NCBI GenBank assembly: GCA_018895765.1
Contig: JAHINX010000061.1
Span: forward strand, 1-41,944
Source: Patescibacteria group bacterium
GTDB taxonomy: Bacteria > Patescibacteriota > Patescibacteriia > GCA-002772895
Direction of reading: 5' to 3'
Length of the DNA stretch: 41,944 nt
This document shows, piece by piece, positions 3,409 through 39,015 of the stretch (within the stretch, counting starts at the first letter, position 1; the number at the start of each line of letters is the position of its first letter). The position numbers were made by a program, and so were the translations under genes. The notes below the pieces were generated by a model. It saw nothing but the letters and a program-made list of their open reading frames with translations, was not told the origin of the DNA and made no database searches.

Positions 3409-3530
3409 AGAAATTATCAATTATCAACGTTCAATTATCAATGAATTTCAAAGTTTAATTTTTTCAATGATCATTAAACGGTTTGCGATTGATTATTCAT
3501 TGATCATTGGTTATTGAATATTGAGTATTT

Positions 3531-4955
3531 ATGAAAGTTATTATCATGGGTCTGGGTTTATATGAAAAAGGAAGCGGCATTTCTGCCGCCAAGTTTTTTA
3601 TTGAAAAAGGCGACGAAGTTTTGATTACTGACTTAAAAGAGAGAAAGGAGTTGCTGCGTCAGATAAAAGAATTGGAAAAATTTTGCAAGAATCATAATAA
3701 AAAAATGCCCATACTTCATCTTGGTGGACATAAAGAAGATGATTTTAAAAGTGTAGATATTGTGATGCGGAATCCCGGCGTGCCAAAGGATTCGCTTTTT
3801 TTAAAAATCGCGCGAAAAGCCGGAGCGCAAATAGAAACCGATGTTACTATTTTTATGAAAAATTGCCACGCGATGGTTATTGGCGTAACAGGCACCCGTG
3901 GAAAAAGCACCACAGCATCTTTGATCTATGAAATATTGAAAAAATCCCCCCTAACCCCCCTTTGCAAAAGGGGGGAGAAAGGGGGAATTTGGCTTGGCGG
4001 AAATATAAAAATTTCTCCGCTTTCGTTTATAGAAAAAGTTAAGCCAAGCGATATTGTTGTTTTGGAATTTTCAAGCTGGATGCTGGAAAACTTTTCTGAA
4101 TATAAAATTGCCCCGCATATTGCTGTTATCACAAATATTTATCCCGACCATTTAAATACTTACAAAAATATGGCAGAATATATTTCTGCCAAGAAAAATA
4201 TTTTTCAATATCAAAAGGCAGGAGATTATTTAGTTTTAAACGGAGAGAATAGGGAAACGAAAAAATGGAAAGGCTATGGAAAAACAATTTATTTTTATAA
4301 AGAAAATATTAAAAAGTTTTATAAATTGCCCATTAAATTGCAGGGTGAGCATAATTTAGAAAATATTAGCGCGGCATATGCAGTGGTAAAAATTATGAAG
4401 GTGCCAGTAGCAAAGATTGAAAAAGTTTTGAAAAAATTTAACGGCCTCTCCGATAGACAGGAGATAATCGCGCAAAATAAGGGGATAACTTTTGTTAATG
4501 ATACAACAGCTACAACGCCGGACGGAACAATCGCGGCTCTCCGTAGATTTGGCGCGAACCAAGAAATCAAGAAAACAAGAAAACAAAAAAACAAGAAAAC
4601 AAGAAAGCAAGAAAGCAAAAAAATCATCCTAATCTGTGGTGGAAGCGACAAGGGGCTAGACTATAAACAATTTGCAAAAGAAGCAAAAAAATATTGCAAA
4701 GCAGTAATATTTTTTCCGGGAACGGCGACGGAAAAAATAAATTATAAATTATCAATTATCAATTATCAATTAATTATTATGGCGAAAGACATGAACAGTG
4801 CGGTAAAAAAGGCAAGACAACAGGCCATTAGAGGAGATATTATATTATTGTCTCCAGCTGCTGCCAGTTTCGGTTTGTTTAAAAATGAATTTGACAGAGG
4901 AGAGGAATTTAAGAAAGTAGTAACACAGGTAACACAGAAAGAACAGCACAGATAA
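3531..4955 (+). CDS. murD: UDP-N-acetylmuramoylalanine--D-glutamate ligase
   Basis: GVTGTRGKSTT P-loop and C-terminal LLSPAAASFGLFKNEFDRGEEF (MurD signature). Carries three repeat-derived in-frame inserts (see findings). Confidence 0.85.
   Translation: MKVIIMGLGLYEKGSGISAAKFFIEKGDEVLITDLKERKELLRQIKELEKFCKNHNKKMPILHLGGHKEDDFKSVDIVMRNPGVPKDSLFLKIARKAGAQIETDVTIFMKNCHAMVIGVTGTRGKSTTASLIYEILKKSPLTPLCKRGEKGGIWLGGNIKISPLSFIEKVKPSDIVVLEFSSWMLENFSEYKIAPHIAVITNIYPDHLNTYKNMAEYISAKKNIFQYQKAGDYLVLNGENRETKKWKGYGKTIYFYKENIKKFYKLPIKLQGEHNLENISAAYAVVKIMKVPVAKIEKVLKKFNGLSDRQEIIAQNKGITFVNDTTATTPDGTIAALRRFGANQEIKKTRKQKNKKTRKQESKKIILICGGSDKGLDYKQFAKEAKKYCKAVIFFPGTATEKINYKLSIINYQLIIMAKDMNSAVKKARQQAIRGDIILLSPAAASFGLFKNEFDRGEEFKKVVTQVTQKEQHR
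3941..3990 (-). repeat. G-rich hairpin element, family A, inverted copy inside murD
   Basis: aaaaatcccccctaacccccctttgcaaaaggggggagaaagggggaattt is the reverse complement of the family seen at 17213-17310, 19410-19455 and 35907-35953. Translated in frame as SPLTPLCKRGEKGGI. Confidence 0.7.
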
Positions 4956-5016
4956 CACAGATAACACAGATTTTTAAGACACAGATAACACAAATTTTTA
5001 AGACATAGATAACACC
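4921..5016. repeat. tandem repeat (cagataaca units, about 24-nt higher-order unit) spanning the murD stop codon
   Basis: cacagataacacagatttttaaga / cacagataacacaaatttttaaga / catagataacac. The murD TAA and its last roughly 10 codons (VTQVTQKEQHR) lie inside the repeat. Confidence 0.8.
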
Positions 5017-5116
5017 CCAGTAGTAGAGCAAAGCTCACTACGGGGCAGGCAGATATGCGCTCGCCTCGCTTCGCGGTCGAAGCGGGCTTCGCGCTATTAA
5101 AAAATCCCGCATTATT

Positions 5117-5536
5117 CTAAGCGGGATTTTGTGGTAGATCAAACTGTTCCAAAATAACATCATAGGCCTCTTTTTTAATGGGCCCGCGTGTTTTTAATGA
5201 AAAAGAAAAAAGTATATAGCATTTATTGTCTGTCCCTACATAACCGACACGCATTTCCTGGTCGTCATATCTTCCTAAAAGATGCATTGCAAAGCCGGGT
5301 CTGGGTTTCGGCATAAGAGTCGCCTTATCCATTTCATTTTTATTAGTATGAATAAAGACGACAAAGATATCGTTCTTATCGTCTGCGCAAATTGCGGCCA
5401 ATCTTTTGCCATTTTTAAATAACTTGTATTCAAAGATAGTATTCGCTATAATCTTTAGCTTTCCATCTAGGAATAATCTTTCTTTTTCATCTTGTCTGAC
5501 TTTTGTTACTTCGTTTTTTGGCACGATTTCCTCCAT
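5117..5536 (-). CDS. hypothetical protein (orphan cassette)
   Basis: 139-aa ORF. Upstream minus-strand promoter TTGACA(5606-5601)-17-TAGTAT(5583-5578). The stop codon lies inside the hairpin aatcccgc/gcgggatt, which is followed by a T-run. The start could instead be the GTG 12 nt downstream, just after GGAGG. Confidence 0.6.
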   Translation of the reverse strand: MEEIVPKNEVTKVRQDEKERLFLDGKLKIIANTIFEYKLFKNGKRLAAICADDKNDIFVVFIHTNKNEMDKATLMPKPRPGFAMHLLGRYDDQEMRVGYVGTDNKCYILFSFSLKTRGPIKKEAYDVILEQFDLPQNPA

Positions 5537-5694
5537 TCTTCACTGAAGCTTCGAATGGCACAGCCCCCTCTTTACTTATACTATAAATTTAAAAGATCAT
5601 TGTCAAATAAGCAAAAAAATGATATTGTTATTATAGGAACCTCTCTAAAACACGTCACCTATGGCATTCTGTTTACAGAGATTCCTATATAAGT

Positions 5695-6993: not shown

Positions 6994-6998
6994 ATATG

Positions 6999-7143
6999 CC
7001 CAGTAAGACCAACTTTGATCTTTGTTGCGCTAAGACGCAACAGGTAAAAATGCTGTTTTTCTTGGCGTAAATTATAATCAAAAAATAAAATTAATCAACT
7101 TTTAAAATTTTATATAAATTATTTTCAAAGTTGTCTTACTGGG
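6999..7143. repeat. family F intergenic element with about 19-bp terminal inverted repeats, abutting a start codon
   Basis: cccagtaagaccaactttga (6999-7018) pairs with tcaaagttgtcttactggg (7125-7143). Contains an internal hairpin gttgcg/cgcaac and an AT-rich core. Homologous to 35022-35152. Confidence 0.7.
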
Positions 7144-7144
7144 T

Positions 7145-7786
7145 ATGACTGACCAAAAAGAAGAAAAAATTGAAAAATCTGATTTTAAAGCCGTAAAGCT
7201 GAAAGACGGCGAAGAAATTTTATTGGTAGTTAGGCAAACGCCGGTTGCTTTTAGCTCCGCGTTTTTAATCGGCCTTTTTTTATTTCTTTTGCCCTTTTTC
7301 TTCTTGTTTCCGCTTTTTTCTTGGGGAAAGATTGGGATGGTGATTTTTTTCATTCTTTTGGGAGGAGCGATACTTTTTGCCCTCTATGAATTAATCAACT
7401 GGTATTTTAATTGCGGGATTATTACCAGTCTTAGAGTAATAGACATTGATCAAAAAGGACTCTTCAACCGCATTGTTTCTGAAGTTCCATATTATAAAAT
7501 TGATGATGTTTCATATAATATAAAGGGGATAAAGCAATCAATGTTTAGGTATGGCAACGTAGTGGTGGCGATAAGAGGTTATCGGTCTAGCGTCACTTTG
7601 CGAAACGTTGCTAAGCCGGCAATGATTCAGGAATTGGTTTTGGAAGTTGAGCGCCGGGTGCGGAAGTGGGACGAAAATGAAGAAAAAAAGCCGGTAATGG
7701 ATAAAATTATGGATGAAATGGATAAGCTTTCTTCTGTGGAAAAGCGCGCTCTTGCCCTTGCGCTTAAAAAAATGAAAAAAGAATAA
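7145..7786 (+). CDS. membrane protein with bacterial PH-like (YdbS/YdbT-type) domain
   Basis: Two hydrophobic helices followed by a segment resembling bPH-domain proteins (ITSLRVIDIDQKGLFNRIVSEVPYYKIDDV). 213 aa. Confidence 0.5.
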   Translation: MTDQKEEKIEKSDFKAVKLKDGEEILLVVRQTPVAFSSAFLIGLFLFLLPFFFLFPLFSWGKIGMVIFFILLGGAILFALYELINWYFNCGIITSLRVIDIDQKGLFNRIVSEVPYYKIDDVSYNIKGIKQSMFRYGNVVVAIRGYRSSVTLRNVAKPAMIQELVLEVERRVRKWDENEEKKPVMDKIMDEMDKLSSVEKRALALALKKMKKE

Positions 7787-7789
7787 GAT

Positions 7790-8167
7790 ATGAAAGATTT
7801 ATCGCTAAAAAAAATATTGGGAATGAAGATAGCGGGTATTGCTATTCTGCTTCTTATTATTCTTTTTGGATTTAATTTTTTTAAAGAATATAGCCGGAGC
7901 AGGGCGCTTGATAAAGAAATAAAAAAATTGGAAGTTGCAGCAAAAGAAGTGGAAGCGCAAAATCTTGATATTCTTAATCTGGCGACATATTTGGATACGG
8001 AAGAGTTTTTGGAAAGCGAAGCAAGGACAAAGCTGGGGTTGAAAAAACCGGGAGAAGAAGTTATTTCCGTTTCTTTGCCTGAGGAAGCAAATGCGCTTGT
8101 GGACAATTTAAATAATCCGGAGGAGCCAAACTTTGTTTTGTGGTGGAAACATTTTTTTAATAAATAG
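7790..8167 (+). CDS. septum formation initiator (FtsB/DivIC-like)
   Basis: N-terminal TM helix, then a coiled coil and the conserved ESEARTKLGLKKPGEEVI motif. Confidence 0.65.
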   Translation: MKDLSLKKILGMKIAGIAILLLIILFGFNFFKEYSRSRALDKEIKKLEVAAKEVEAQNLDILNLATYLDTEEFLESEARTKLGLKKPGEEVISVSLPEEANALVDNLNNPEEPNFVLWWKHFFNK

Positions 8168-8179
8168 TTAAAGAAATTA

Positions 8180-8212
8180 AATCTGAAATTTGAAATCTGC
8201 AATTTGAAATTG
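8180..8212. repeat. heptamer tandem repeat (aatctga/aatttga units)
   Basis: aatctga aatttga aatctgc aatttga. The 20-mer at 8180-8199 is the exact reverse complement of 18239-18258. Confidence 0.85.
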
Positions 8213-8215
8213 TAT

Positions 8216-8818: not shown

Positions 8819-8867
8819 ATGAAGGTGGGGAGGTAAAAAGATTTTGACTGGCTATTTTTAATTCCTA

Positions 8868-8900
8868 AATAGCTAAAAAGCTAAGTAGCTAAGTAGCTGA
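8868..8900. repeat. octamer tandem repeat (agctaaaa/agctaagt) directly before the ftsE start
   Basis: tagctaaaaagctaagtagctaagtagctga. TAA/TAG recur every 8 nt. Confidence 0.8.
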
Positions 8901-8901: not shown

Positions 8902-9582
8902 ATGATCGAATTTAAAAATGTTTCAAAAATTTATCCGCCGGATTTTGTTGGCGTGAAAAATATAAGCCTCCGCATCCAAGATGGAGAGTTTGTTTCTGTT
9001 ATTGGAAAGTCAGGTAGCGGAAAAACGACACTAGTAAAGCTGTTAATGGCCGAAGAACCCATCTCTCATGGCGAGCTCAAGATTGGAGACGTGGAAGTTA
9101 CGAAAATAAAAAGAAATGAGATTCCCTCTTTGCGCAGACAGATAGGCGCGGTTTTCCAGGATTATAAGCTTTTGCCAAGAAAAACAATTTTTGAAAATGT
9201 AGCTTATGCCTTGGAGGTTTGTGGAATAAATAACAAGCGTATAGGCGAAATTGTTCCGCAAGTTCTAAGAGTTGTGGGCCTTGAAGGGAAAGAAGGTAGA
9301 TACCCACTTCAAATATCAGGCGGAGAACAGCAAAGGGCGGCTATAGCCCGGGCTCTTGTTCATAGCCCAAAGCTCTTAGTCGCTGATGAACCGACCGGAA
9401 ATCTTGATGCCTTGAATACGCAAGAGATTATTGAGCTTCTGAAAAAGATAAACAGTCTTGGCACAACGGTCCTTCTGGTTACTCATAATCGCGAGGTAGT
9501 GAATGCATTAAAAAAGCGGGTTGTCACCTTGGACATGGGGATGGTAGTCGGTGATGCCGAGCATGGGAGATATAAGATATAA
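8902..9582 (+). CDS. ftsE: cell division ATP-binding protein FtsE
   Basis: ABC ATPase (GKSGSGKTT, LSGGEQQR, LLVADEPTGNLD) immediately upstream of an FtsX-like permease gene. Confidence 0.85.
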   Translation: MIEFKNVSKIYPPDFVGVKNISLRIQDGEFVSVIGKSGSGKTTLVKLLMAEEPISHGELKIGDVEVTKIKRNEIPSLRRQIGAVFQDYKLLPRKTIFENVAYALEVCGINNKRIGEIVPQVLRVVGLEGKEGRYPLQISGGEQQRAAIARALVHSPKLLVADEPTGNLDALNTQEIIELLKKINSLGTTVLLVTHNREVVNALKKRVVTLDMGMVVGDAEHGRYKI

Positions 9583-9584
9583 GA

Positions 9585-9622
9585 AATGACCAATTTCCCA
9601 AATCCCAATGACCAATGAAGAG
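9585..9622. repeat. heptamer repeat block (aatgacc/caaatcc/caatgac)
   Basis: cccaaatcccaatgaccaatgaag (9597-9620) is identical to 38189-38212. Both copies start at a stop codon. Confidence 0.85.
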
Positions 9623-9641: not shown

Positions 9642-10556
9642 ATGATTTCTAACTTGCAAAAAATATTCAAATTCGGAGCGCAAAATTTTGCCCGTAATTT
9701 TTGGCTGAAAATTTTGACTATCGTAATTTTAACAGTTCTACTTTTGCTAATAAATGGACTTGTGATTATAAATTTTTTGACCAACGAAGCATCTCGTCAG
9801 GTTCAGTCAAAAGTTGATGTCAGTATTTATCTGAAAACAAGTGCGACAAATGAAGAGGCGCAGAGTCTGCGATCTTATCTTATGAGTCTGGCTAACGTAT
9901 CCAATGTAACCTATAAAAGTTCGGATGATGTTTTGAAAGAATTTAAAGAAACGCACAAAGACGACCAAGACATTCTTTCTTCCCTAACGTTTTTAGAGAC
10001 AAATCCTTTCGGCGGGGCTTTAGTCGTGCAAACAGTAAATGTTAATGACTATAATACTGTTTTAAAACAACTCGACACTCCTATTTATGATAAAATAATT
10101 GAGAATAAAGATTTTGGCGACAATGAAAAACTTATTGAAGTAATAAATAGGATGACTAGTTTTGTAAAGCAATTTATAGTTCTAATTAGCCTATTTTTTG
10201 CCCTTATTGCGGTTATTGTGATATTTAACACTATCCGCATGGGGATTGATGCCCATCGCCACGAGATAAGCATAATGCGCCTTGTCGGCGCGGCAAATTG
10301 GTTTGTTAAGGGGCAATTTGTTGTTGAGCTGCTTATCTATAGTACTATTGCTGCTATAGCTTCTCTTATATTAATTTTTCCGATAATATCCGTAATACAG
10401 CCAAATGTGTTGGCATTTTTTAATGGTCAGGCAGGTGATATTTTTGCTTATTACAGGGCAAATATATTCGGGCTGTTTGCTTTGCAATTTGTTGGTATTT
10501 TTGCCTTTTCTTTGCTTTCCGCATGGTTTGCGCTGGGAAGATATTTGAAGAAATAA
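9642..10556 (+). CDS. ftsX: cell division permease FtsX
   Basis: N-terminal TM helix, extracytoplasmic domain, then three C-terminal TM helices. Adjacent to ftsE. Confidence 0.8.
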   Translation: MISNLQKIFKFGAQNFARNFWLKILTIVILTVLLLLINGLVIINFLTNEASRQVQSKVDVSIYLKTSATNEEAQSLRSYLMSLANVSNVTYKSSDDVLKEFKETHKDDQDILSSLTFLETNPFGGALVVQTVNVNDYNTVLKQLDTPIYDKIIENKDFGDNEKLIEVINRMTSFVKQFIVLISLFFALIAVIVIFNTIRMGIDAHRHEISIMRLVGAANWFVKGQFVVELLIYSTIAAIASLILIFPIISVIQPNVLAFFNGQAGDIFAYYRANIFGLFALQFVGIFAFSLLSAWFALGRYLKK

Positions 10557-10621
10557 TCAATGATCAATTTTCAATTATCAACTATGGTGTTCCCGCTATC
10601 GCGGGAACATTATTTAAAACT

Positions 10622-17212: not shown

Positions 17213-17310
17213 TTCCTCCCCGTCTTCTCCCCCTTAGGAGAAGGGGGACCCGGGGGGATTTAATAATTTTTAAGTCCCCCCTGCCCTTCTTTTTCAAAGG
17301 AGGGGACTTG
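17213..17310. repeat. family A G-rich hairpin elements, two copies arranged tail to tail
   Basis: tcttctcccccttaggagaagggggacccggggggatttaataat, followed by the inverted copy ttaagtcccccctgcccttctttttcaaaggaggggacttg. Confidence 0.7.
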
Positions 17311-17583: not shown

Positions 17584-17622
17584 TAATTGTAATCCGTAAC
17601 TCGTAATCCGTAACTCGTAAAA
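17584..17622. repeat. heptamer tandem repeat (gtaatcc/gtaactc)
   Basis: tagtaat tgtaatc cgtaact cgtaatc cgtaact cgtaaaa. A TAA recurs every 7 nt. Confidence 0.85.
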
Positions 17623-26301: not shown

Positions 26302-26508
26302 CTAAGAGATGGGCAGAACCGCGGGGATGCAGGTGAATTGCTCGGCGAGGCCGGGCGAATCGTTTTTCCAGAACCGGTCGTGTAGGTTCTTGGCCTCAAT
26401 CCGCGCTTCCATAAGCGTGAAAGCGGTGATTCCGAGAACCTTGTTTGGCTCTCCGGGCCAACCACAGGCGCATCTTGCCGCCCAGACGATTTTTCGCTGA
26501 CAAGGCAT
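26302..26508 (-). CDS. hypothetical protein, GC-rich
   Basis: 68 aa. SD AAGGAG 7 nt upstream of the ATG. Last gene before terminator 26222-26252. Confidence 0.55.
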   Translation of the reverse strand: MPCQRKIVWAARCACGWPGEPNKVLGITAFTLMEARIEAKNLHDRFWKNDSPGLAEQFTCIPAVLPIS

Positions 26509-26528
26509 ACTTTTCTCCTTTATGGGTT

Positions 26529-26771
26529 TTATACAGCCATGATCCTTGCAAGCTCGCGTGCCTCGCGTTGCGCCTCGTGGAATTTACTCCTCATTTCTCC
26601 ATAGGTGAAGAAGCGTTCTGCCAGCGCGTCCGGTCCGTCATCCATTTGGCGGATGCTCATCGGCGCTTTTTCGCAAAGCCGGCGAAGGTCGTTCAGGCCG
26701 GAATCGGTGAGCTGAGCTTGGATCTCGTCTTCGATCATACTGTTGATCATTTTGATAGCCTTCAGGGTCAT
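26529..26771 (-). CDS. hypothetical protein, GC-rich
   Basis: 80 aa counted from ATG 26771 (MTLKAIKMINS...), preceded by AAAAGGAAAAG. Confidence 0.5.
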   Translation of the reverse strand: MTLKAIKMINSMIEDEIQAQLTDSGLNDLRRLCEKAPMSIRQMDDGPDALAERFFTYGEMRSKFHEAQREARELARIMAV

Positions 26772-26856
26772 CTTCTTTTCCTTTTCGGATTTTTGCGGCA
26801 AGTTAGGTATGCCGCAGAAATCCGCGGCAGGAGATTAGTCGCCGGTGTTTCTGACC

Positions 26857-27021
26857 TTACTTAAACTGGACAGTCAACGCCGGTTTGAGACAGAGAGTCG
26901 GATTTGGTCGCAGAACTGAGGCCGTTTTGTGCGCCTGCACTGCTTTGAGGCGCGCTTTCAGAACCGAGCTGGCCAAAAAAAAGTCTTTGAATGAGCAGTT
27001 TGCGCATTTGCACTCGAACAT
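26857..27021 (-). CDS. hypothetical small protein (54 aa)
   Basis: ORF absent from the track: MFECKCANCSFKDFFLASSVLKARLKAVQAHKTASVLRPNPTLCLKPALTVQFK. AAAGGAA lies upstream. It begins 27 nt after the tRNA-like sequence. Confidence 0.35.
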   Translation of the reverse strand: MFECKCANCSFKDFFLASSVLKARLKAVQAHKTASVLRPNPTLCLKPALTVQFK

Positions 27022-27048: not shown

Positions 27049-27126
27049 TGGTACCCCCGACCGGATTCGAACTGGCGAATACTGGCGTTAAAGGCTAGTC
27101 TCTTAAGCAAACTAGAGTACGGGGTA
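27049..27126 (-). pseudogene. tRNA-like sequence with UUA at the anticodon position and an encoded CCA; degenerate
   Basis: TACCCCG-TA-CTCT-AGTTTGCTTA-AGAG-A-CTAGC-CTTTAAC-GCCAG-TATTC-GCCAG-TTCGAAT-CCGGT-CGGGGGT-A-CCA. There is an A-C mismatch in both the anticodon and T stems, the 5' acceptor strand is one C short, and the D-loop has no GG. Confidence 0.45.
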
Positions 27127-27129
27127 TTG

Positions 27130-27202
<73 letters not shown>

Positions 27203-27685: not shown

Positions 27686-30340
27686 ATGCAGGATAAGATA
27701 ATTATAAAAGGCGCGCGTGAGCACAATCTGAAAAATATTAGTTTGGAGCTTCCGCGCAATAAGCTGATCGTTTTTACGGGATTATCCGGTTCGGGAAAAT
27801 CGAGCCTGGCTTTTGATACTATTTTTGCCGAAGGCCAGCGCAGGTATATTGAGTCGCTATCGGCATATGCCCGGCAGTTTTTGGGAAAGATGGATAAGCC
27901 GGATGTTGATGAAATAGAAGGTCTTGCGCCGGCAATTTCCATTGATCAAAAAGCCCATAGCGCAAACCCGCGTTCAACCGTGGCGACCATTACCGAAATT
28001 TATGATTATTTGCGCGTCCTCTTTGCTCGCGTGGGAGAACCGTTTTGTCCAGTTTGCAAAAAGAAAATTCAAAAAATGACTGTCCAGGAAATGGTGGATG
28101 TAACGCTAGAAAAATTGGAAAAAGAAAAAATAAAAAGCGAAGATAAACTAATTATTTTATCTCCAATTATTCGTGGCCGAAAAGGCGAATATTATCAGCT
28201 TCTTTATGATTTATATAATAAAGGTTTTAGTGAAGTCGCGGTTGACGGAAAAATGCATAAGCTTAGTGGAACGATAAAATTATCCCGTTATAAACGGCAC
28301 GATATTGATTTGGTTATCAGAAAATTAACCATCGCATATCCGATCCATGATAATAAAGTTTTGCAAAAAGAATTATCCGAAGCAATAGAAACTTCTTTAG
28401 AAGAGTCGGACGGTTTGGTAAAAATTATTATGCCGGGGACGTCTGTCATTGCGAGGAGTCCGTACTCGGAGGACGTGGCAATCTCACTGCAAAAAGATAG
28501 GATTGCTTCGTCGCAGAATTCTCCATTTTCCGTCAAGGCTACGAACGGCACGCAGAATGACGTTTTATTACTTTCGTCAAAATATTCTTGCCCGAATGAT
28601 AATTTTGCTTTTCCGGAAATAGAACCGCGTCTTTTTTCATTTAATAGTCCATACGGCGCTTGTGAATATTGTCATGGAATTGGAACGAAATTTATTTTTT
28701 CTGACGAAATATGCCCAAAGTGTCTTGGTAAGCGCCTAAAAATAGAAGCGCTTCATGTTTTAATCGGCGGAAAAAATATTAATGATGTTGTTAATATGTC
28801 GATAAGCGAAGCAGTAGAGTTTTTTAGTGGATTAAAATTATCCGCAAAACAAAAAGAAATTGCCGAAGCCGCGCTCCGCGAAATAAAAAACCGCCTTACT
28901 TTTATGCTTGATGTTGGGCTTAATTATCTAACATTGAATAGAAAGGCTGGCACCTTGTCTGGCGGAGAAGCACAAAGAATCCGGCTTGCTTCGCAAGTTG
29001 GCTCACGTCTTGTCGGCGCGCTCTATGTTCTTGATGAGCCGACAATCGGGCTTCACCAGCGTGACAACGAGCGTTTGCTTGAAACGTTATCTGAGCTCCG
29101 CGATATCGGCAATACGGTGATTGTAGTTGAGCATGATGAAGATACAATCTTAATGAGTGATTATATGGTTGATATAGGTCCTGGCGCCGGTAAAAACGGT
29201 GGAGAAATAGTTGCATCAGGCACGTTGCAGGAGGTTTTGAAAAATAAAAATTCTTTGACCGCAAAATATCTCCGCGGAGAATTAAAAGTGCCAATGCCCG
29301 AGACGCGCAGAAAAAATATTAAAGAAAAAATTGTAATTTCCGGCGCGACCGAGCATAATCTGAAAAATATAAAAATTGAAATTCCCTTGAAAAAATTTGT
29401 TTGTCTTACCGGCGTTTCCGGTTCCGGTAAATCAACGGTGATGAATGACATTTTATACCGCGCGGCTTCCAAAAAAATAAACCATTCAGGGGTTAGGCCG
29501 GGCGCATATAAAAAAATAGAAGGCCTCTCGCATATTGATCGCGTGATTGTTGTTGACCAGTCGGCAATTGGTAGAACTCCGCGTTCCAATCCGGCAACTT
29601 ATACCGGATGTTGGACACATGTCCGCGAACTTTTTTCCACTACGCCCGAAGCGCGGGCGCGTGGGTATAAAATCGGACGTTTCAGTTTTAACCGCCCGGG
29701 TGGAAGATGCGAACACTGCGAAGGTAATGGCACGATTGCTATTGAAATGCATTTTTTGCCGACAGTTTATGTAAAATGCGATGTTTGTAAGGGCAAGCGG
29801 TTTGACCGCGAAACATTGGAGATAAAATATAAAGGGAAGAATATTGCTGATATTTTGGATATGGAAATAGATGAAGCCGATGGATTTTTCAAGAATATTC
29901 CGCAGATATCCGACAAGCTGAAAGTTTTGCGCCAAGTCGGTTTGGGCTATTTGGAACTCGGCCAGGGCGCGCCGACCTTGTCTGGCGGAGAAGCGCAAAG
30001 AGTGAAATTGGCAAAAGAGCTTTCAAAATATTATTCTCTTCGTTTCCGTCAAGGCCTGTCGCGTTCGCTTTATCTTTTGGATGAGCCGACAGTCGGCCTC
30101 CATTATGACGATATAAAAAAGCTTGTCGCGGTTTTGCAAGAGCTTGTTTCCGCGGGAAATACAGTTCTAATTATTGAACATAATCTTGATATAATAAAAA
30201 ATGCGGATTATATTATTGACCTTGGTCCGGAGGGCGGGGATAAAGGTGGAGAGGTTATTGCAACTGGTACACCGGAAGAGGTGGCGCGGATGCCCAGATC
30301 ATATACGGGGCAATACTTGCGAAAAGTTTTGGGGGTTTAG
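27686..30340 (+). CDS. uvrA: excinuclease ABC subunit A
   Basis: The start is set at [18 protein letters not shown]. Two ABC modules ([26 protein letters not shown] x2) and zinc-finger Cys clusters. Confidence 0.95.
28445..28561 (+). mobile_element. family C MITE-like element, 117 bp, in frame inside uvrA
   Basis: gtcattgcgaggagtccgtactcggaggacgtggcaatctc...cgcagaatgac, with terminal inverted repeats. The first roughly 40 nt match 32027-32066. Translated as [39 protein letters not shown]. Confidence 0.75.
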
Positions 30341-30773: not shown

Positions 30774-32015
30774 ATGTTTAGTAAAAAAATGGCAAAAGCA
30801 TTAAATAACCTACCTGACAAGCCCGGCGTATATCTTTTTAAAGATAATCGTGGGGAAATTATTTATGTTGGCAAAGCCGGCTCATTAAAGCGGAGAGTAA
30901 AATCATATTTTGCGCGGGCAGGGGACAGAAAAACAGAAGCGCTTGTTTCGGAAGCTATTGATTTGGAAATCCGCGAAACGCCATCTGTTCTTGAAGCTCT
31001 GATTTTGGAAGCGGAACTTATAAAAAGATTAAAACCAAAATACAACATCCGCGATAAAGACGATAAGTCATTTATTTATGTCGGCATCACGCGGGAAGAT
31101 TTTCCAAAACCGATATTGGTGCGCGGGCATGAGTTGCAAGCTATGAATTCTAAGTTTCAAGTTTCTTTTGGGCCGTTTACCAGCGCCGGCGCGCTCCGTG
31201 AAGCGTTAAAAATTTTGCGCGGAATTTTTCCTTGGTCAGAGTGTAAACCAAACCAAAACAAACCATGTTTTTATTATGGCATTAAAAAATGTCCCGGTGT
31301 ATGCGTTGGCAAAATCAGTAAAAAAGATTATCAGAAAAACATTTCAGGTTTAAAATTATTTTTTCGCGGGAAGAAGACGCAAATTATAAAAAATCTGGAA
31401 CGCGAAATGAAAGAGGCTTCAAAAGATCGCGAGTTTGAGCGCGCGGCTGAATTTCGCAATAGGATTTATGCCCTAAACCATATTCATGATATTTCTTTGA
31501 TAAAAAAAGACGATTTTATGAACTGTAGGGCTCCCGAAGCCCTACAGCATAAAGCAATGGGCAGAATTGAGGGGTATGATATATCCAATATCAGCCAAAA
31601 GCTGGCAACCGGTTCTATGGTCGTTTTTAGAGATGGCGCGCCGGAAAAAAAAGAATATAAAAAATTTCGCATAAAAAATACCAAGTCCGGCGACGTGCCA
31701 ATGCTTCGCGAGGTTTTGACGCGCAGATTTAAAAATAATTGGCCAAGTCCTGATATAATTTTGATTGATGGAGGAGAAGCGCAGGTTGGCGTTGCGGAAA
31801 AAGTTTTGAAGGCAAACAAATTGAATATTCCGGTTATTGGCATTGCCAAGGGGATCTCCAGAAAAAACGACCGTTTTGTTTTTGATTATAATGACCAGGA
31901 ATTGAAAAGAATAACTAAAATTTTTGAAAATTTATTTAAACAGGTTCGCGATGAAGCGCATCGTTTTGCGATTGGCTACCATAGAAGTTTGCGGAAAATA
32001 AAACGGCCGTTATAA
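30774..32015 (+). CDS. uvrC: excinuclease ABC subunit C, short form without the C-terminal (HhH)2 domain
   Basis: GIY-YIG (PGVYLFKDNRGEIIYVGKAGSLKRRV), a UVR domain (FERAAEFRNRI) and an endonuclease domain (IEGYDISN...DGGEAQ...RDEAHRFAI). It ends after 413 aa. Confidence 0.85.
   Translation: MFSKKMAKALNNLPDKPGVYLFKDNRGEIIYVGKAGSLKRRVKSYFARAGDRKTEALVSEAIDLEIRETPSVLEALILEAELIKRLKPKYNIRDKDDKSFIYVGITREDFPKPILVRGHELQAMNSKFQVSFGPFTSAGALREALKILRGIFPWSECKPNQNKPCFYYGIKKCPGVCVGKISKKDYQKNISGLKLFFRGKKTQIIKNLEREMKEASKDREFERAAEFRNRIYALNHIHDISLIKKDDFMNCRAPEALQHKAMGRIEGYDISNISQKLATGSMVVFRDGAPEKKEYKKFRIKNTKSGDVPMLREVLTRRFKNNWPSPDIILIDGGEAQVGVAEKVLKANKLNIPVIGIAKGISRKNDRFVFDYNDQELKRITKIFENLFKQVRDEAHRFAIGYHRSLRKIKRPL
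31521..31547 (+). repeat. family B 27-nt hairpin element in uvrC
   Basis: aactgtagggctcccgaagccctacag. Stem gtagggct/agccctac, loop cccga. Translated as NCRAPEALQ. Confidence 0.85.
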
Positions 32016-32026
32016 AACCTCTTTCC

Positions 32027-32131
32027 GTCATTGCGAGAAGTGCGTACTCGCGCGACGTGGCAATCCCGTCTAAAATGAGATTGCCACGCCCCGCTCCAGT
32101 TTTGAAGAACTGGATCTGGACTCGCAATGAC
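32027..32131 (+). mobile_element. family C MITE-like element, intergenic copy directly after the uvrC stop
   Basis: gtcattgcgagaagtgcgtactcgcgcgacgtggcaatccc...ctcgcaatgac. Flanked by the imperfect direct repeats aacggccgttataaaac (32002-32018) and aacggcctcataaaac (32149-32164). Confidence 0.75.
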
Positions 32132-32213
32132 ATGCAGGGGAGTTTTAGAACGGCCTCATAAAACGGGTTGACAAAAAGTAATAAATTTGCTTAAATATAA
32201 GGAAGGAGGCGCG

Positions 32214-33273: not shown

Positions 33274-33375
33274 GTATCAATTGCAAATATCAAATTGCAA
33301 ATTTATTGATTATATTGTTTTAGGGTAATCGTAATAATTTAATAAAATTTGGAATCTGAAATTAGAAATTAGAAT

Positions 33376-33807: not shown

Positions 33808-33812
33808 AATAA

Positions 33813-33896
33813 CCCCTAACCCCTAACCTTTAACCTTTAACCTTTAACAATTAACCGTCAAATGTCAGATGTCAAATGTTAGATGTTAAATGTTCT
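33813..33896. repeat. 12 consecutive heptamers (cccctaa x2, cctttaa x3, caattaa, ccgtcaa, atgtcag, atgtcaa, atgttag, atgttaa, atgttct)
   Basis: Direct reading. It fills nearly the whole mraZ-rsmH spacer, with TAA or TAG in most units. Confidence 0.9.
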
Positions 33897-33900
33897 TACT

Positions 33901-34896: not shown

Positions 34897-34941
34897 AATC
34901 TCCTAAACACACCCTTTATAAAATTTTTTTATCCTCGTTTA

Positions 34942-35017
34942 TCCCCGCCCCGGTTTTGTCAGTAAGGTTTTTTTTGAAATCTTTTGGATAAAACCGGGGC
35001 GGGGGAAATCGGTTTTT
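34942..35017 (+). terminator. long GC-rich hairpin with T-run after rsmH (terminator or REP-like)
   Basis: tccccgccccggtttt (34942-34957) pairs with aaaaccggggcggggga (34990-35006), then ...ggtttttt. Confidence 0.5.
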
Positions 35018-35021
35018 TATG

Positions 35022-35152
35022 CCCGGTAGTGAAACTTTGACAGCTTTGCATGGCAAAGCCGGACATTGCCGGAAATATAAAAGCTTTCAAAAACATTTTA
35101 ATTTCAACAAATTAATCTAAAAAATTATAAAAGTCAAAGTTCTACTACCGGG
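35022..35152. repeat. family F intergenic element abutting the ftsL-like start codon
   Basis: cccggtagtgaaactttgac (35022-35041) pairs with gtcaaagttctactaccggg (35133-35152). The AT-rich core contains aaattaatc, as does the copy at 6999-7143. Confidence 0.7.
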
Positions 35153-35153
35153 T

Positions 35154-35507
35154 ATGGTAAAAAGAAAAATAAAAAAACAAAAATTTGAATTTAGGAGACA
35201 AAGAGGCCGGGCAAAAAAAGGAAAATTACCCGTTTTCCGATTTAATATTTTTGCTGTTGCACTTGCGCTTGTTTTTTTAATTGGTAATCTTGTTATTATT
35301 AACAGCATCACGGAAAATGGATACAAAATGAAAAAAATGAAAGAAGATTTAATGGACTTGAAAAATAAAAAACAAGAATTAAGTTTAGAAATCTCCGAAA
35401 GGCAATCAATGGAAAATGTTCTGTCAAAAGTGGAAGATTTGGGTTTGGTAAAAGCCGATAAAATAGAATATATAGAGGGCTCCGCAAGTGCGATGGTGAA
35501 AAGATAA
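35154..35507 (+). CDS. cell division protein FtsL-like
   Basis: Basic N-terminus, one TM helix, then a coiled coil. It sits directly after rsmH, as in dcw clusters. Confidence 0.6.
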   Translation: MVKRKIKKQKFEFRRQRGRAKKGKLPVFRFNIFAVALALVFLIGNLVIINSITENGYKMKKMKEDLMDLKNKKQELSLEISERQSMENVLSKVEDLGLVKADKIEYIEGSASAMVKR

Positions 35508-35544
35508 CACCTAACACCTAACATTTAACACCTAACATTTAACA
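35505..35544. repeat. heptamer tandem repeat (taacacc/taacatt) starting at the ftsL-like stop codon
   Basis: taacacc taacacc taacatt taacacc taacatt taaca. A TAA every 7 nt gives stops in all three frames. Confidence 0.9.
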
Positions 35545-35630
35545 TGCCCCCGCTTTAGCGGGATTTTTTGTTTTTAACGATTTTAGATATCTCTTGCAAA
35601 AAAGCATATTTTAAGATAATATTATATAAT

Positions 35631-37109
35631 ATGCCATACAAAAAATATAAAAAGATTCATTTTATAGGGATTGGCGGAATAGGCGTAAGCGCTGTTGCTA
35701 AGTGGGCGCTTTTGGAAGGCGTGGAGGTGAGCGGTTCCGATGTGGAAAATACAGAAATAACGAGTGAGCTTCAAAAAATGGGAGCCAAAATTTTTATTGG
35801 TCATAAAGAAAAAAACATTGCGCGTGATATTGACTTAATTGTTTATTCTTCGGCCGTGCCAGCCACAAATCCTGAACGCTCGGTTTTGAGACGGATACGC
35901 CACAGCAAGTCCCTTCCTTTGGAAAAGGAAGGACAGGATGGATTTAATAATGATTTAATTCCCCAGAAATCATATTTCGAATTTTTGGGAGAAATAACCC
36001 GTGGGAAAAAATTGATTGCAGTGTCAGGGACTAATGGCAAGAGCACGACAACGGCAATGCTGGGAAAAATTTTGATTGACGCCGGTCTTGACCCACTTGT
36101 TATCGTCGGTTCAAAAATAAATGTTTTTTCGCACGGCAATTTTAATTATGGAAAAGGGGAATACGCAGTCGTGGAGGCATGCGAGCATAACGCGCATATG
36201 TTGAATCTGCATCCATGGTCAATCGTTCTTACAAATATAGAAGCAGATCATTTGGATTTTTATAAAAATTTGGACAATATTCTGGAAGCGTTTAAAAAAT
36301 ATGTCGCCAAGATAGAAAAAGGATGTTTTCTAATATATAACGGCGATGATAAAAATAGCGCCGAGGTGGCAAAAACTCACGCTTGCCGTCTTATTTCCTA
36401 TGGCGTGCATGAAGATGCGGACTTGCGGTTTGAAGAGCGCCATATCGATAAAGGCACACAGATTTTTCAAACAAAAACTGTAGGGCTCCCGAAGCCCTAC
36501 CAGATGGAATTGCAAGTACCTGGGCTTTTTAATGTTTATAATGCGATGGCGGCAATATCTATGGCAAAGGCGCTTGGTATCAAATTTGAGGTAATAAAAA
36601 AATCGCTTGCAAATTTTCGCGGGCTTTGGCGCAGGTTTGAGCACGTTGGAGAATATAATGGCGCGCCAATTATTTCCGATTACGGCCACCATCCGCACGC
36701 GATAGAAGCAACGCTTTTGGCCGCACGCGAATTTTATCCGGATAGAAGAGTTATATTAGCATACGAACCACACCAGCACCATAGGACAAAGGCTCTTTTT
36801 GCCGATTTTGTCCGCAGTTTCGACAAGGCAGATGTTCTTATTTTGGGAGAGATATATAATGTAGAAGGAAGAGTCGAAAAACAAGATTGTGATATATCTT
36901 CGCGCAAACTTGCAGACGCAATTATAAAGTATTGGGAATCGGATGAAAATAAAAAGGAGCGTACAGAGCACGAATTATTTTATTGTGAAAATAATGATGA
37001 AGTTTTGAAAGCGCTGAAAGAGACAATAAACTCCGACGACGTTGTGATAATTATGGGAGCAGGGGGGATTTACAAAGTTGCAAAAAGATTGATTGCCGCG
37101 GATTCCTAG
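35631..37109 (+). CDS. murC: UDP-N-acetylmuramate--L-alanine ligase
   Basis: The start is set at MPYKKYKKIHFIGIGGIGVSAVA. GTNGKSTT and DYGHHPHAIEATL. Carries a family A insert (35907-35953) and a family B insert (36476-36503). Confidence 0.9.
   Translation: MPYKKYKKIHFIGIGGIGVSAVAKWALLEGVEVSGSDVENTEITSELQKMGAKIFIGHKEKNIARDIDLIVYSSAVPATNPERSVLRRIRHSKSLPLEKEGQDGFNNDLIPQKSYFEFLGEITRGKKLIAVSGTNGKSTTTAMLGKILIDAGLDPLVIVGSKINVFSHGNFNYGKGEYAVVEACEHNAHMLNLHPWSIVLTNIEADHLDFYKNLDNILEAFKKYVAKIEKGCFLIYNGDDKNSAEVAKTHACRLISYGVHEDADLRFEERHIDKGTQIFQTKTVGLPKPYQMELQVPGLFNVYNAMAAISMAKALGIKFEVIKKSLANFRGLWRRFEHVGEYNGAPIISDYGHHPHAIEATLLAAREFYPDRRVILAYEPHQHHRTKALFADFVRSFDKADVLILGEIYNVEGRVEKQDCDISSRKLADAIIKYWESDENKKERTEHELFYCENNDEVLKALKETINSDDVVIIMGAGGIYKVAKRLIAADS
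35907..35953 (+). repeat. family A hairpin element (diverged copy) inside murC
   Basis: aagtcccttcctttggaaaaggaaggacaggatggatttaataatgat is translated as KSLPLEKEGQDGFNNDL. Confidence 0.6.
36476..36503 (+). repeat. family B hairpin element in murC
   Basis: aactgtagggctcccgaagccctaccag is translated as TVGLPKPYQ. Confidence 0.85.
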
Positions 37110-37213
37110 CGGATTCTCACGGATGGGATTTACGGATCCGTGTAATCTAATCAGTGGAAATCAGCTATAAATCCGTAAAAATCCTTTTTATTAAACGGAA
37201 GGAACTATAACAT

Positions 37214-38182
37214 ATGATAAATATTTTAGAAAATCAACTCCTATCCAAATACACCACCTTTCATATTGGCGGGGCGGCCAAACATTTTGTAATTGTAAAA
37301 AATACAGAAGAATTGCAAGAGGCCTTGGAATGGGCAAAAGAGAATAATGAGAAATATTTTATCCTTGGTGGAGGGTCTAATGTGCTTTTTTCCGATGATG
37401 GATATGAGGGGCTGGTTATAAAAATTGCTTTTTTCGACATAATAATAGAAGGAGGGGGGATGATTGCCGGAGCAGGCGTTCCCTTGCTCTTAGCCGTCAA
37501 GCGCGCGGGAGATGCAGGGCTCGCGGGCTTGGAAAATTTTGCAGGCATTCCTGGCACAATTGGTGGCGCGGTTACAAATAATGCCGGCGCTTATGGATCA
37601 TCTATAGAAAAAGCCGTAGAAAAAGCCGAAATCGGCTTTGCCGTCCCGAGCGAAGTCGAGGGATCTCACAATTACAATATAAAAATAGTAGATAACGAAT
37701 GGTTTGAATTTGGTTATCGGAAAAGTAAGCTGAAATATTGGCAAGACGCTGACAAGCCGGTTATTCTACGCGTTTGGTTGAAATTGCAAAAAGAAGATAA
37801 AGAAAAATTGCAGGAAAAAATTAAAGAAGTAATGAATGACCGGATAAAGAAAGAGCCAAAGGGCTTTTGCGCCGGATGTGCTTTTAAAAATATAAAAGGA
37901 GAAGAAGTGGCAAAAATTTTGGAGAAGTTTGATTTTACTCCCGAAGAACGCGAACGCTTTGGCTCCCGTAAGGCAATTCCGACAGCCTGGTTTATTGATC
38001 ACGCGGGATTAAAGGGTAAAAAAATCGGCGGAGCCTATATTTCGGAAGAGCATGCTAATTATATAATGAATGATAGCACAGCAACCGCGGATCACGTCCT
38101 TCAGCTTGTTTCACTTGTAAAACAGCAGGTCCGTGATAAATTTGGAGTGCAATTAGAAGAAGAGGTGCAAGTAGTAGAATGA
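37214..38182 (+). CDS. murB: UDP-N-acetylenolpyruvoylglucosamine reductase
   Basis: LSKYTTFHIGGAAKHFV, GGGSNVLF, and YRKS followed by the C-terminal substrate domain. Confidence 0.9.
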   Translation: MINILENQLLSKYTTFHIGGAAKHFVIVKNTEELQEALEWAKENNEKYFILGGGSNVLFSDDGYEGLVIKIAFFDIIIEGGGMIAGAGVPLLLAVKRAGDAGLAGLENFAGIPGTIGGAVTNNAGAYGSSIEKAVEKAEIGFAVPSEVEGSHNYNIKIVDNEWFEFGYRKSKLKYWQDADKPVILRVWLKLQKEDKEKLQEKIKEVMNDRIKKEPKGFCAGCAFKNIKGEEVAKILEKFDFTPEERERFGSRKAIPTAWFIDHAGLKGKKIGGAYISEEHANYIMNDSTATADHVLQLVSLVKQQVRDKFGVQLEEEVQVVE

Positions 38183-38212
38183 CCAAGTCCCAAATCCCAA
38201 TGACCAATGAAG
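38178..38212. repeat. heptamer repeat block identical to the one after ftsE
   Basis: gaatgaccaagtcccaaatcccaatgaccaatgaag. The murB TGA stop is part of the first aatgacc unit. Confidence 0.85.
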
Positions 38213-38259
38213 GCGCTTTGCTGTCGCAAAAATAAATTATTAAAAATTAATTTAAATTT

Positions 38260-38637
38260 ATGAAATTAGAATCAATAAAATATACGGGGATAGAATCAAG
38301 CCCCGCGTTAAATGAATACGTAGAAGAAAAGATTGCGACTCTTAGTAAATATGTAGAAAATTTTGGCACTCCGCGCGATATTCGTGTGGAGCTTGAAAAA
38401 ACTACACACCACCATCAGACAGGCCCATTTTTTCGCGCTGAGGCGAATATTAATATTCCCGGGCATTTTTTCCGCGCAGAGCAGACTGCGGATGATATAT
38501 ATGACGCGATTGATATGTTAAAAAATGATTTGGAACGCCAACTTTCCGATTACTCGGATAAACTCCGCACAAAAAAGCGCGATGGTGGACAAGAGATGAA
38601 AAATATGTTAAATTATGACGAGTCAGTAGGGGAATAA
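38260..38637 (+). CDS. hpf: ribosome hibernation promoting factor (short HPF/RaiA type)
   Basis: 125 aa. S30AE-family pattern: ...SPALNEYVEEKI...RVELEK...FRAEANINIPG..FRAEQTADDIYDAIDMLKNDLERQL. Confidence 0.8.
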   Translation: MKLESIKYTGIESSPALNEYVEEKIATLSKYVENFGTPRDIRVELEKTTHHHQTGPFFRAEANINIPGHFFRAEQTADDIYDAIDMLKNDLERQLSDYSDKLRTKKRDGGQEMKNMLNYDESVGE

Positions 38638-38656
38638 AAAAAGAGCCCGCAGGCTC

Positions 38657-38884
38657 TTAAGTGAGAATTCTGTATTTAACTAAAACTGATATAAATCGCT
38701 GAGGAAGCCCGGTGGCAGCATGCGGTAAAGGCAGTCTTCCATTAGAGGAATTGATTATAACGGTCATGTCAAACTCTGTTTTATAGCTTATTACGTCAAC
38801 TTTTCCTAATTCTTTATGTATTGCGTCAGATACTGCTTTATCATCGCATATTGTATTTTGCAAAATTACGCGGTGCTTTAGCAT
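38657..38884 (-). CDS. hypothetical protein (orphan cassette)
   Basis: 75 aa counted from ATG 38884 (SD AAGGAGGG). Promoter TTGACA(38939-38934)-17-TAATAT(38916-38911). Hairpin aagagcc/ggctctt plus a T-run overlaps the stop codon. Confidence 0.6.
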   Translation of the reverse strand: MLKHRVILQNTICDDKAVSDAIHKELGKVDVISYKTEFDMTVIINSSNGRLPLPHAATGLPQRFISVLVKYRILT

Positions 38885-39015
38885 TACTCCCTCCTTTTCT
38901 TTTGTTCTTGATATTATCAAAAAATTAAATATTTGTCAAGTGTCAATGATTAGCTCCACAGAACGGGATACGGCATTCCCTTACTACTTGCTACACACTA
39001 CTTACTACATTTTTT

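Follow-up and report, generated by a model that had tools for sequence, protein, structure and literature searches.

Heptamer tandem arrays between housekeeping genes of a Patescibacteria lineage: a probable recent bloom by duplication in place

A 41.9 kb stretch of DNA from a Patescibacteria group bacterium (the whole of contig JAHINX010000061.1 of assembly GCA_018895765.1, 41,944 nucleotides; hereafter the window) has 40% G+C and housekeeping genes that are nearly all co-directional, and many of the spacers between these genes are occupied by tandem arrays of 7-nt units. The arrays are a non-random, period-7-specific, and mostly intergenic feature; they arose in place and recently, and they are stable at present. 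They represent a recent lineage-specific bloom which is part of a general gain of small repeats and which is most likely close to neutral filler. They are heptanucleotide simple-sequence repeats (SSRs), probably born by duplication in place and persisting in a nearly neutral manner.

Patescibacteria are regarded as streamlined organisms which are strongly pressed to stay compact, and a bloom of repeats contrasts with that image. Since the split from a sister species at ~80% DNA identity, the window lineage has gained at least 11 short tandem arrays, together with hairpin inserts and inserts resembling miniature inverted-repeat transposable elements (MITEs), whereas the sister has gained no arrays in the compared regions. 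This contrast provides an unusually clean before-and-after view of the birth of heptamer arrays at junctions of stop and start codons, and the unexplained preference of bacteria for 7 nt could be approached through the replication and repair gene sets of both sisters.

Period-7 excess and birth at gene junctions

Tandem Repeats Finder (TRF) returned 16 period-7 rows for the window, as compared with 1.51±1.27 (maximum 5) in 100 dinucleotide-preserving shuffles, which is an excess of about 10-fold; period 14 gave 11 rows versus 0.32 in the shuffles, and period 21 gave 4 versus 0.03. With a strict lag scan (threshold of at least 17 matches out of 21), 10 period-7 arrays were observed, as against 0 in 30 simulations, and the other periods yielded none (periods 4-6 and 10-13), two (period 8), or one (period 9). 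Eight of the ten strict-scan arrays sit in non-coding DNA, which makes up 15% of the window, and the autocorrelation of the non-coding DNA peaks at lags 7, 14, and 28, with the lag-7 peak confined to this fraction. Both the shuffled control and the autocorrelation, which had been proposed as checks in an earlier note on this DNA, therefore support its claim of a period-7 enrichment in the window. The arrays contain 3.6-13 units by TRF and the lag scan, that is, the at least 3 head-to-tail copies that define a generic heptanucleotide SSR, and they share with the generic bacterial class the period-7-specific excess and the intergenic enrichment.

All of the arrays listed in the earlier note were found at their coordinates with their units, and its observation that the unit word changes between spacers was borne out: most units in these 42 kb are unique to one locus, and two families recur at 2-4 loci. 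On the other hand, its wording that most short spacers hold arrays was too strong. According to the gene map of the window, heptamer arrays are present in 8 of the 16 co-directional spacers of 30-130 nt, with an octamer array in one more, and they number 10 over all 28 co-directional spacers. One array had been overlooked, namely a degenerate one at 3489-3530, which is inverted relative to that at 3411-3453.

When MraW was used as the query, the GTDB representative genomes gave matches of 32-46% identity only and no close relative; a metagenome scan provided one useful sister contig. The comparison was made with partly overlapping sister contigs (L010, L013, L030, and L032), in which gene order is conserved and which show ~72-86% DNA identity over the aligned segments. 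Of the fourteen arrays that are comparable with the sister, 11 occur in the window lineage only and three in both species; the sister has none of its own. More distant relatives carry 0-1 arrays per 12-22 kb. The MraZ-MraW junction in L013 reads TAA-AT-ATG, with the genes 2 nt apart, versus 13 heptamers, an array of 87 nt in a junction of 93 nt, in the window; the DivIC-tRNA-Gly spacer is 3 nt in the sister and 48 nt in the window, the GT2-MurD spacer 40 nt (L032) and 122 nt, and the FtsE-FtsX spacer 21 nt (L030) and 59 nt, respectively. The array at 35505 is absent in L013, in which the stop position of the FtsL-like gene and the following hairpin with its T-run are conserved.

As to the shared arrays, the one between FtsX and Dus (10552) has an equal unit number and ~83% identity in L030, and the one inside murD (4737-4775) has an equal length and a single substitution in L032, so both are of exactly unchanged length. 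The murD array is thus an old one, in which the reading frame holds the copy number fixed. The array in front of mraZ (33346) differs in length in L013 and has the units TTGATAA/TTGAAAG there.

The sister also retains single copies of words that are repeated in the window. A single ATTTCAG copy (AATTTCAG) is found in L010 at the same place where the window has 4.6 copies, and a single CTAAAAG word stands in L030 where the window has the octamer array at 8865-8898. Within the 13-unit MraZ-MraW array, the divergence between units grows with their separation, from 1.6 to 5 mismatches (r = 0.60, permutation p = 0.0002). Since its units keep TAA or ATG according to the end of the array, and since divergence rises with distance, birth in place by duplication is indicated.

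The most likely scheme is as follows. A 7-nt (often 14-nt) word at a gene junction would have been duplicated by strand slippage or by unequal local duplication, and the copies would later have diverged through point mutation. Because the ancestral spacers of this compact genome were only 2-40 nt long, the seed word would mostly have included the stop codon of the preceding gene or the start codon of the following one. In seven of the 13 intergenic arrays, the start coincides with an upstream stop codon or is no more than 3 nt away from it (3411, 9585, 10552, 17584, 33808, 35505, and 38178), in agreement with the remark of the earlier note that several arrays start with the stop codon of the upstream gene. 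A seed that held the stop, combined with a period coprime to 3, would explain why arrays start at stop codons and carry stops in all frames. Because a 7-nt step shifts the reading frame, arrays would persist only after a stop codon, in leaders, or as frame-keeping blocks in tolerant loops and tails. The arrays inside open reading frames (ORFs) occupy such places, with an octamer array in a loop of MurD and the ATTTCAG array in an N-terminal tail, and the frame is preserved. Several arrays have an alternating period-14 structure, which fits the duplication of two-unit blocks. Slippage as the mechanism, near-neutral persistence, and any reason for the period of 7 are what we infer from these patterns.

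The arrays are unchanged in two contigs of GCA_022012845.1 and in the Logan contigs of SRR11548473, and in none of the 13 intergenic arrays does the unit number change across these assemblies and the window. This agreement of three assemblies rules out an assembly artefact. The window and the NCBI contigs are 99.5-99.9% identical, with 14 single-nucleotide polymorphisms (SNPs) in all, and the only indels are one of 13 nt (outside the arrays) and one of 55 nt, the latter because the NCBI contig L023 has two copies of an entire 41-nt AATGACC block, 14 nt apart, versus one in the window. One Logan contig is 100% identical to the window over 4.9 kb, three arrays included. Since unit numbers are constant among near-identical assemblies, the arrays are not hypervariable contingency loci, and the comparison of array lengths suggested in the earlier note revealed no gain or loss of a unit in the 13 intergenic arrays. 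The slippage hotspot which that note had considered is thus retained in part: the product of replication slippage fits best as the origin of the arrays, given the seeds in the sister, but a present-day hotspot does not agree with their constant lengths. The 13-nt indel (26792-26804) distinguishes the window from contigs L008 and L009; its surroundings, between uvrB and the tRNAs, are rich in G+C, and it falls inside an ORF (26445-26864, + strand) that is missing from the NCBI gene calls and matches nothing in Pfam.

Several observations weigh against duplication in place as the whole account. The lack of any difference in unit number between assemblies of 99.5-100% identity leaves high slippage rates undemonstrated, although these assemblies differ by only ~14 SNPs. 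AATTATC arrays recur with similar flanks at 3411, 4737, and 10552, and the AATGACC block is found at 9585 and 38178 besides being duplicated in L023; these recurrent families therefore point to copying between loci or to a favoured word, beyond independent birth in place. Besides growth in place, there is thus some transfer of copies from locus to locus or some bias towards particular words. The arrays are A-rich and G-poor on the sense strand (10.5% versus 20% G), which could reflect selection at the RNA level, and their sense-strand stop coverage is above that of letter shuffles (6 versus 2.7, p about 0.02). Moreover, duplication in place accounts neither for the period of 7 nor for why this lineage had such a burst.

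Competing explanations of the arrays

The main rival to duplication in place is a function at the RNA level, which we consider unlikely. As unstructured, G-poor, A/C-rich stretches of the polycistronic mRNA, the arrays would bind ribosomal protein S1, cold-shock-type proteins, or Rho (at C-rich, G-poor sites), and would thereby tune initiation without a Shine-Dalgarno motif, uncouple neighbouring genes, or tune termination. The placement of some arrays agrees with such a role: five of the 13 end 0-5 nt upstream of a start codon without a Shine-Dalgarno motif (3489, 8865, 33346, 33808-33900, and 38979), and TAACTGA repeats with a like placement, also without ribosome-binding sites, have been described (MacGregor 2015, PMC4679880). 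The composition agrees as well, since on the sense strand the arrays contain 40% A, whereas the remaining non-coding DNA has 29.5%, and only half as much G as other spacers, with C exceeding G in 9 of the 13. Folding is weak (-0.067 versus -0.144 kcal/mol per nt in other spacers), and the two arrays shared with the sister at unchanged length fit in too. However, the weak folding is explained by base composition, as letter-shuffled arrays reach -0.039 kcal/mol per nt. A special secondary structure was also considered and rejected, because the arrays fold no more weakly than their own letter shuffles, with the exception of the inverted pair at 3409-3530.

The placement is likewise less telling than it appears. 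A Shine-Dalgarno motif precedes only ~1/3 of the window genes, and several genes look leaderless; since ~2/3 of all genes are without the motif, the association of arrays with its absence is expected by chance, and a test for mutual exclusion of array and motif is uninformative. Equally many arrays stand directly behind a stop codon with a terminator-like hairpin to follow (35505, 17584, and 10552), which is the wrong place for initiation; the hairpin behind each of these three arrays is short and G+C-rich, and a terminator-like character was flagged for two of them. With units that change from locus to locus, the arrays do not suit any one sequence-specific binder, and the binding array which the earlier note had listed among the possibilities is unlikely for the same reason. 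Moreover, the sister runs the same operons without arrays, with MraZ and MraW almost adjoining.

Dispersal by copying is quite unlikely. It holds that some or all arrays are small mobile or gene-converted elements, or footprints of these, like the heptamer-associated small dispersed repeats of Nostoc, and did not result from local slippage. The AATGACC...GAAG block, of 35-41 nt, is indeed present at two loci with a 24-nt identical core, as had been noticed before, and the other assembly has it twice in tandem with 14 nt in between; AATTATC arrays stand between similar flanks at three loci, plus one inverted. In addition, several families of MITE-like elements, which have terminal inverted repeats, are found in the genome, and one array directly adjoins a 44-nt dispersed element. 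Nevertheless, the units of most arrays are unique, a single-copy or junction seed is visible in the sister for three arrays, and the arrays have neither terminal inverted repeats nor target-site duplications; the gradient of divergence in the 13-unit array fits growth in place.

All-frame stops on the sense strand are present in 6 of the 13 intergenic arrays, where letter shuffles give 2.7 and other spacers 1.2. The antisense strand, however, is equally stop-rich (7 of 13, versus 3.2 in letter shuffles; p = 0.0075), so selection for stops on the sense strand is ruled out. Therefore, the excess reflects the periodicity together with A/T-rich words. Since the period is coprime to 3 and seven arrays were seeded on a real stop codon, the stop content of the arrays is a by-product of seeding and not evidence of selection. 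The per-frame tabulation that the earlier note had called for thus found all-frame coverage in nearly half of the arrays but no specificity for the sense strand, and its multi-frame translation stop, as a selected device, is not supported, all the more as three arrays have a sense stop in at most one frame (none in 33275 and 38979, one frame only in 3411).

A tRNA-like gene in the window touches on the same question. It has the anticodon UUA, which would read UAA, and is located at 27049-27126 (- strand) beside tRNA-Lys(UUU) at 27129-27202. Its score against the Rfam tRNA model is 37.9 bits (gathering score 29) and its acceptor stem is irregular; because of the irregular stem and the low score, the gene may be inactive. 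L008 and L009 also have the tRNA(UUA), and the sister contigs L010 and L013 carry tRNA-Gln(UUG) at that position, followed by Val, Glu, and Met tRNAs, which are missing in the window. Recoding of TAA is ruled out, as the stops of MraZ, FtsL, and FtsX align with those of the sister, which has tRNA-Gln(UUG) instead.

It is very unlikely that the arrays are a newly recruited RNA-level device of this lineage, made up of unstructured, G-poor modules at gene boundaries and used for loading S1, cold-shock-type proteins, or Rho or as a frame-independent backstop, the spread of which was coupled to the replacement of tRNA-Gln(UUG) by tRNA(UUA). If this were true, the window would be a natural experiment in which a streamlined genome rewires termination and re-initiation between genes. 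A selected barrier of frame-independent stops, acting after readthrough or frameshifting, would also gain relevance from the tRNA(UUA) gene, but it is highly improbable. The sense-strand coverage above the shuffles, the seven arrays that begin at a real stop codon, and the occurrence of tRNA(UUA) in this lineage, versus tRNA-Gln(UUG) in the array-poor sister, would all suit it. Against this stand the stop-rich antisense strand, the arrays with few or no sense stops, and the several arrays that lie in leaders and not 3' of genes; besides, the stops of the arrays are mostly TAA, the very codon that a UUA anticodon would read, the tRNA(UUA) itself may be inactive, and its co-occurrence with the arrays is based on one lineage. 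Finally, it is hardly credible that the arrays are contingency (phase-variation) loci, in which a change in copy number switches the expression of a neighbouring gene: tandem repeats do adjoin start codons and occur in 5' coding regions, but the repeats are imperfect (75-100% match), 0 of 13 intergenic arrays vary in unit number among the three assemblies, the arrays inside ORFs are of fixed length between species, and the genes next to them (mur, fts, mraZ/W, and dus) serve housekeeping and encode neither surface nor restriction functions.

The individual arrays, other small repeats, and gene context

All of the arrays are given here on the + strand. The CAATTAT/AATTATC array of ~5 units at 3411-3453 begins 3 nt after the GT2 stop codon and is absent in L032, and the degenerate TATTGAN/TTGATNA array at 3489-3530, also absent in the sister, abuts the MurD ATG. 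As an inverted pair, the two can fold into a long imperfect hairpin which reaches the murD start codon (RNA fold of 3409-3530: -27.9 kcal/mol, z = -2.4). Inside murD, eight copies of the octamer CAAGAAAA at 4559-4625 encode NQEIKKTRKQKNKKTRKQ (TRF); they form a surface loop of the C-terminal domain, which is an insert of 20 residues relative to the MurD structure 3lk7 (PDB) and of 16 residues relative to the sister MurD (P0158). The AATTATC array of ~4.7 units at 4737-4775, in the same gene, is read as INYKLSIINYQL. Tandem repeats of 9 nt and 24 nt (GTAACACAG, CACAGATAA, and ACACAGATAACACAGATTTTTAAG) span the murD stop codon at 4920-5015 and are absent in L032.

Between the DivIC stop codon and tRNA-Gly(CCC), 4.7 copies of AAATCTG/AAATTTG are found at 8179-8211, and four copies of the octamer CTAAATAG/CTAAGTAG lie between tRNA-Thr and the FtsE ATG at 8865-8898. 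The FtsE stop codon is covered by 2.4 copies of AGATATA, after which comes a 38-nt block (9568-9622 together, absent in L030); the units of the block, at 9585-9622, are AATGACC, AATTTCC, CAAATCC, CAATGAC, and CAATGAA. In the second block of this family, AATGACC...CAATGAAG at 38178-38212, the first unit contains the TGA stop codon of MurB, and the block is identical in the Logan contig L031. The array at 10552-10585 (AATAATC, AATGATC, AATTTTC, AATTATC, and AACTATG) starts 2 nt before the FtsX stop codon and is followed by the hairpin CCCGC-TATC-GCGGG. The GTAATCC/GTAACTC array at 17584-17622, whose true period is 14, stands directly after the stop codon of a small ORF; the hairpin TGTCGC-TTT-GCGACA and then the next ATG come 3' of it, and the sister contigs L010 and L030 have unrelated sequence at that place.

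Two arrays are located in the ORF of the SNase-LTD protein. One, ATTTCAG in 4.6 copies at 18233-18270, lies in the N-terminal tail (FRFQISDFRF), and the other, a CAATCAA-like array at 19456-19490 (QSTIINQQSII), lies directly 3' of a copy of the 44-nt dispersed hairpin element, the sister sequence not being alignable here. Both peptides, and LSIINYQL in MurD, are stop-free readings which had been described in the earlier note and were found again. In the mraZ leader, a period-14 array of two TATCAAATTGCAAA copies at 33275-33302 is absent in L013, and ATCTGAA, ATTAGAA, ATTAGAA at 33346-33374 ends 1 nt before the MraZ ATG. Thirteen heptamer units in a single register occupy the entire MraZ-MraW spacer (33808-33900); the 5' units start with TAA and the 3' units contain ATG, and the array is identical in L008 and L031. 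The first TAA of the six TAACACC/TAACATT units at 35505-35544 is the stop codon of the FtsL-like gene, and a terminator-like hairpin, CCCGCTTTAGCGGG, with a T-run follows. The last array, CTTACTA, CTTGCTA, CACACTA, CTTACTA at 38979-39010, belongs to the second P-type ATPase gene, whose ATG follows its end at a distance of 5 nt. In practice, such arrays mislead ORF callers and break assemblies; for example, MraW starts at 33901, and the ORF-finder had placed its start at 33883.

Further small repeats were gained in the same lineage, namely MITE-like elements, a hairpin element of 44 nt, and a hairpin word of 25 nt; in uvrA, murD, murE, uvrC, and an ATPase gene, some of these are inserted with the frame kept. 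Therefore, the heptamer bloom and these other gains together indicate a general tolerance or generation of small repeats. A MITE-like element with the ends GTCATTGCGAG ... CTCGCAATGAC is present at 28436-28568, inside uvrA, and at 32024-32140, in the intergenic DNA after uvrC; the uvrA copy is a related in-frame insert of ~117 nt which is absent in L010, and a related fragment fills a sister spacer (L010/L030). Inserts of ~140-150 nt with the terminal inverted repeats ATGCCCRGTA...TACYGGGTAT are found at 6994-7146 and 35019-35155, and they extend precisely to the ATG of bPH and of the ftsL-like gene, respectively; the spacer between the Mur ligase and bPH is 9 nt in the sister.

The 25-nt hairpin word AACTGTAGGGCTCCCGAAGCCCTAC occurs in three unrelated ORFs, uvrC (31521-31545), murE (36476-36500), and a P-type ATPase gene (39162-39186). 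Its uvrC and murE copies are identical, the ATPase copy is 92% identical to them, and the word is read in two different frames; at the uvrC site the sister has unrelated sequence of equal length. The 44-nt hairpin element, CTTCTCCCCCTTAGGAGAAGGGGGA...GGGGGATTTAATAAT, is dispersed over 17224-17267, 19411-19454 (SNase-LTD ORF), and 35908-35951 (murE), with three tandem copies in L023 (150-290). An insert of 10 residues in MurD relative to the sister, SPLTPLCKRGEKGG, is a candidate derivative of this element. In the SNase-LTD protein, 4.1 copies of a 21-nt in-frame tandem repeat at 20063-20149 encode TSTSTPQ/E. The NCBI contig JAKLRM010000017.1 starts exactly at this repeat, which therefore breaks that assembly.

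The genes of the window include P-type ATPases, murD, a second Mur ligase, ftsB/divIC, ftsE/X, dus, two S41 peptidases, tdk, the SNase-LTD protein, uvrB/A/C, mraZ, mraW, the ftsL-like gene, murE, and murB. The best named homologues belong to 'Patescibacteria group' and 'Parcubacteria group bacterium CG10_big_fil_rev'; no identical protein turned up for MraW (with the ORF-finder start) or for the second P-type ATPase, and an Rfam scan of the window found tRNAs only. The accessible part of the genome amounts to ~43.4 kb, that is, the window plus 1.5 kb upstream in L023. Boxes resembling a -10 element lie 6-8 nt 5' of the ATG, without a Shine-Dalgarno motif, at murE (35631), doxX (8351), VIT1 (14730, - strand), and hyp91 (30660, - strand). 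Because of the proximity of box and ATG and the absence of the motif, the sequence suggests that the mRNAs of these four genes are leaderless.

Comparison with known heptamer-repeat systems

The short tandemly repeated repetitive (STRR) heptamers of heterocystous cyanobacteria, which Mazel and co-workers are said to have reported in 1990, reportedly have the units CCCCA(A/G)T, TT(G/T)GTCA, and CAACAGT. They resemble the window arrays in being intergenic tandem heptamers that are transcribed with flanking genes, with several unit families per genome, so the earlier note's choice of STRR as an analogue was fair, though the unit words differ. Unlike most window units, which occur at one locus in these 42 kb, each STRR family is found at many loci, and the phylum differs. 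No tandem match beyond chance to the STRR1, STRR2, or STRR3 consensus units was found in the window. Rickettsia palindromic elements and MITE-type or repetitive extragenic palindromic (REP)-type repeats are palindromic inserts in frame and other small repeats. The window genome likewise tolerates small repeats in essential ORFs with the frame kept; its arrays, however, are tandem, non-palindromic, and without terminal inverted repeats.

A literature search for heptamer repeats and Patescibacteria found no paper treating both. Intergenic TAACTGA direct repeats are known from marine Beggiatoaceae and from some Cyanobacteria and Bacteroidetes, and an RNA-level landing or tuning role was proposed for those of the Beggiatoaceae (MacGregor 2015, PMC4679880). 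They are similarly stop-rich heptamers in 2-6 copies, some overlapping the end of the upstream ORF and many ending a few nt before start codons without a Shine-Dalgarno motif. In reverse orientation they are read within ORFs as LSVISYQ, to be compared with LSIINYQ in the window, and the AATTATC arrays correspond to TAATTGA on the other strand, with one mismatch per unit. By contrast, the window has no dominant single word, no more than 5 of its 13 arrays adjoin a start codon, with 7 located after stop codons, and it offers direct evidence of birth in place and not of import. There are no TAACTGA arrays in the window, the only matches being two TAATTGA on the minus strand inside murD; membership in the STRR or TAACTGA families is thus ruled out on unit sequence.

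The arrays belong to the class of generic heptanucleotide SSRs, which according to Mrazek 2007, as cited in PMC4692102, are over-represented in many bacteria; the same source is cited there for a proposed, untested reason for the number 7, namely the length of DNA held in the active site of the polymerase. Named examples are the GGGAATC arrays of Xanthomonas and the GGGGA(C/T)T arrays of Nostoc (Rehm et al. 2015, PMC4692102), and the Xanthomonas arrays differ between close species and also occur as inverted pairs (PMC4692102). The likeness extends to a period-7-specific excess with neighbouring periods normal, to a mainly intergenic position, mostly between co-directional genes, and to a typical number of ~4 units; length and sequence vary among close species, inverted pairs capable of forming stem-loops occur occasionally, and no function has been demonstrated. 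Unlike the Xanthomonas and Nostoc arrays, those of the window have A/T-rich, G-poor units without G-quadruplex potential, and the units vary from array to array, whereas one word dominates in those systems; moreover, the host is a member of the Patescibacteria with a reduced genome, and the bloom is missing in a sister at ~80% DNA identity. Therefore, overall the window arrays are a further example of the known bacterial excess of heptanucleotide repeats, here in the form of a lineage-specific bloom.

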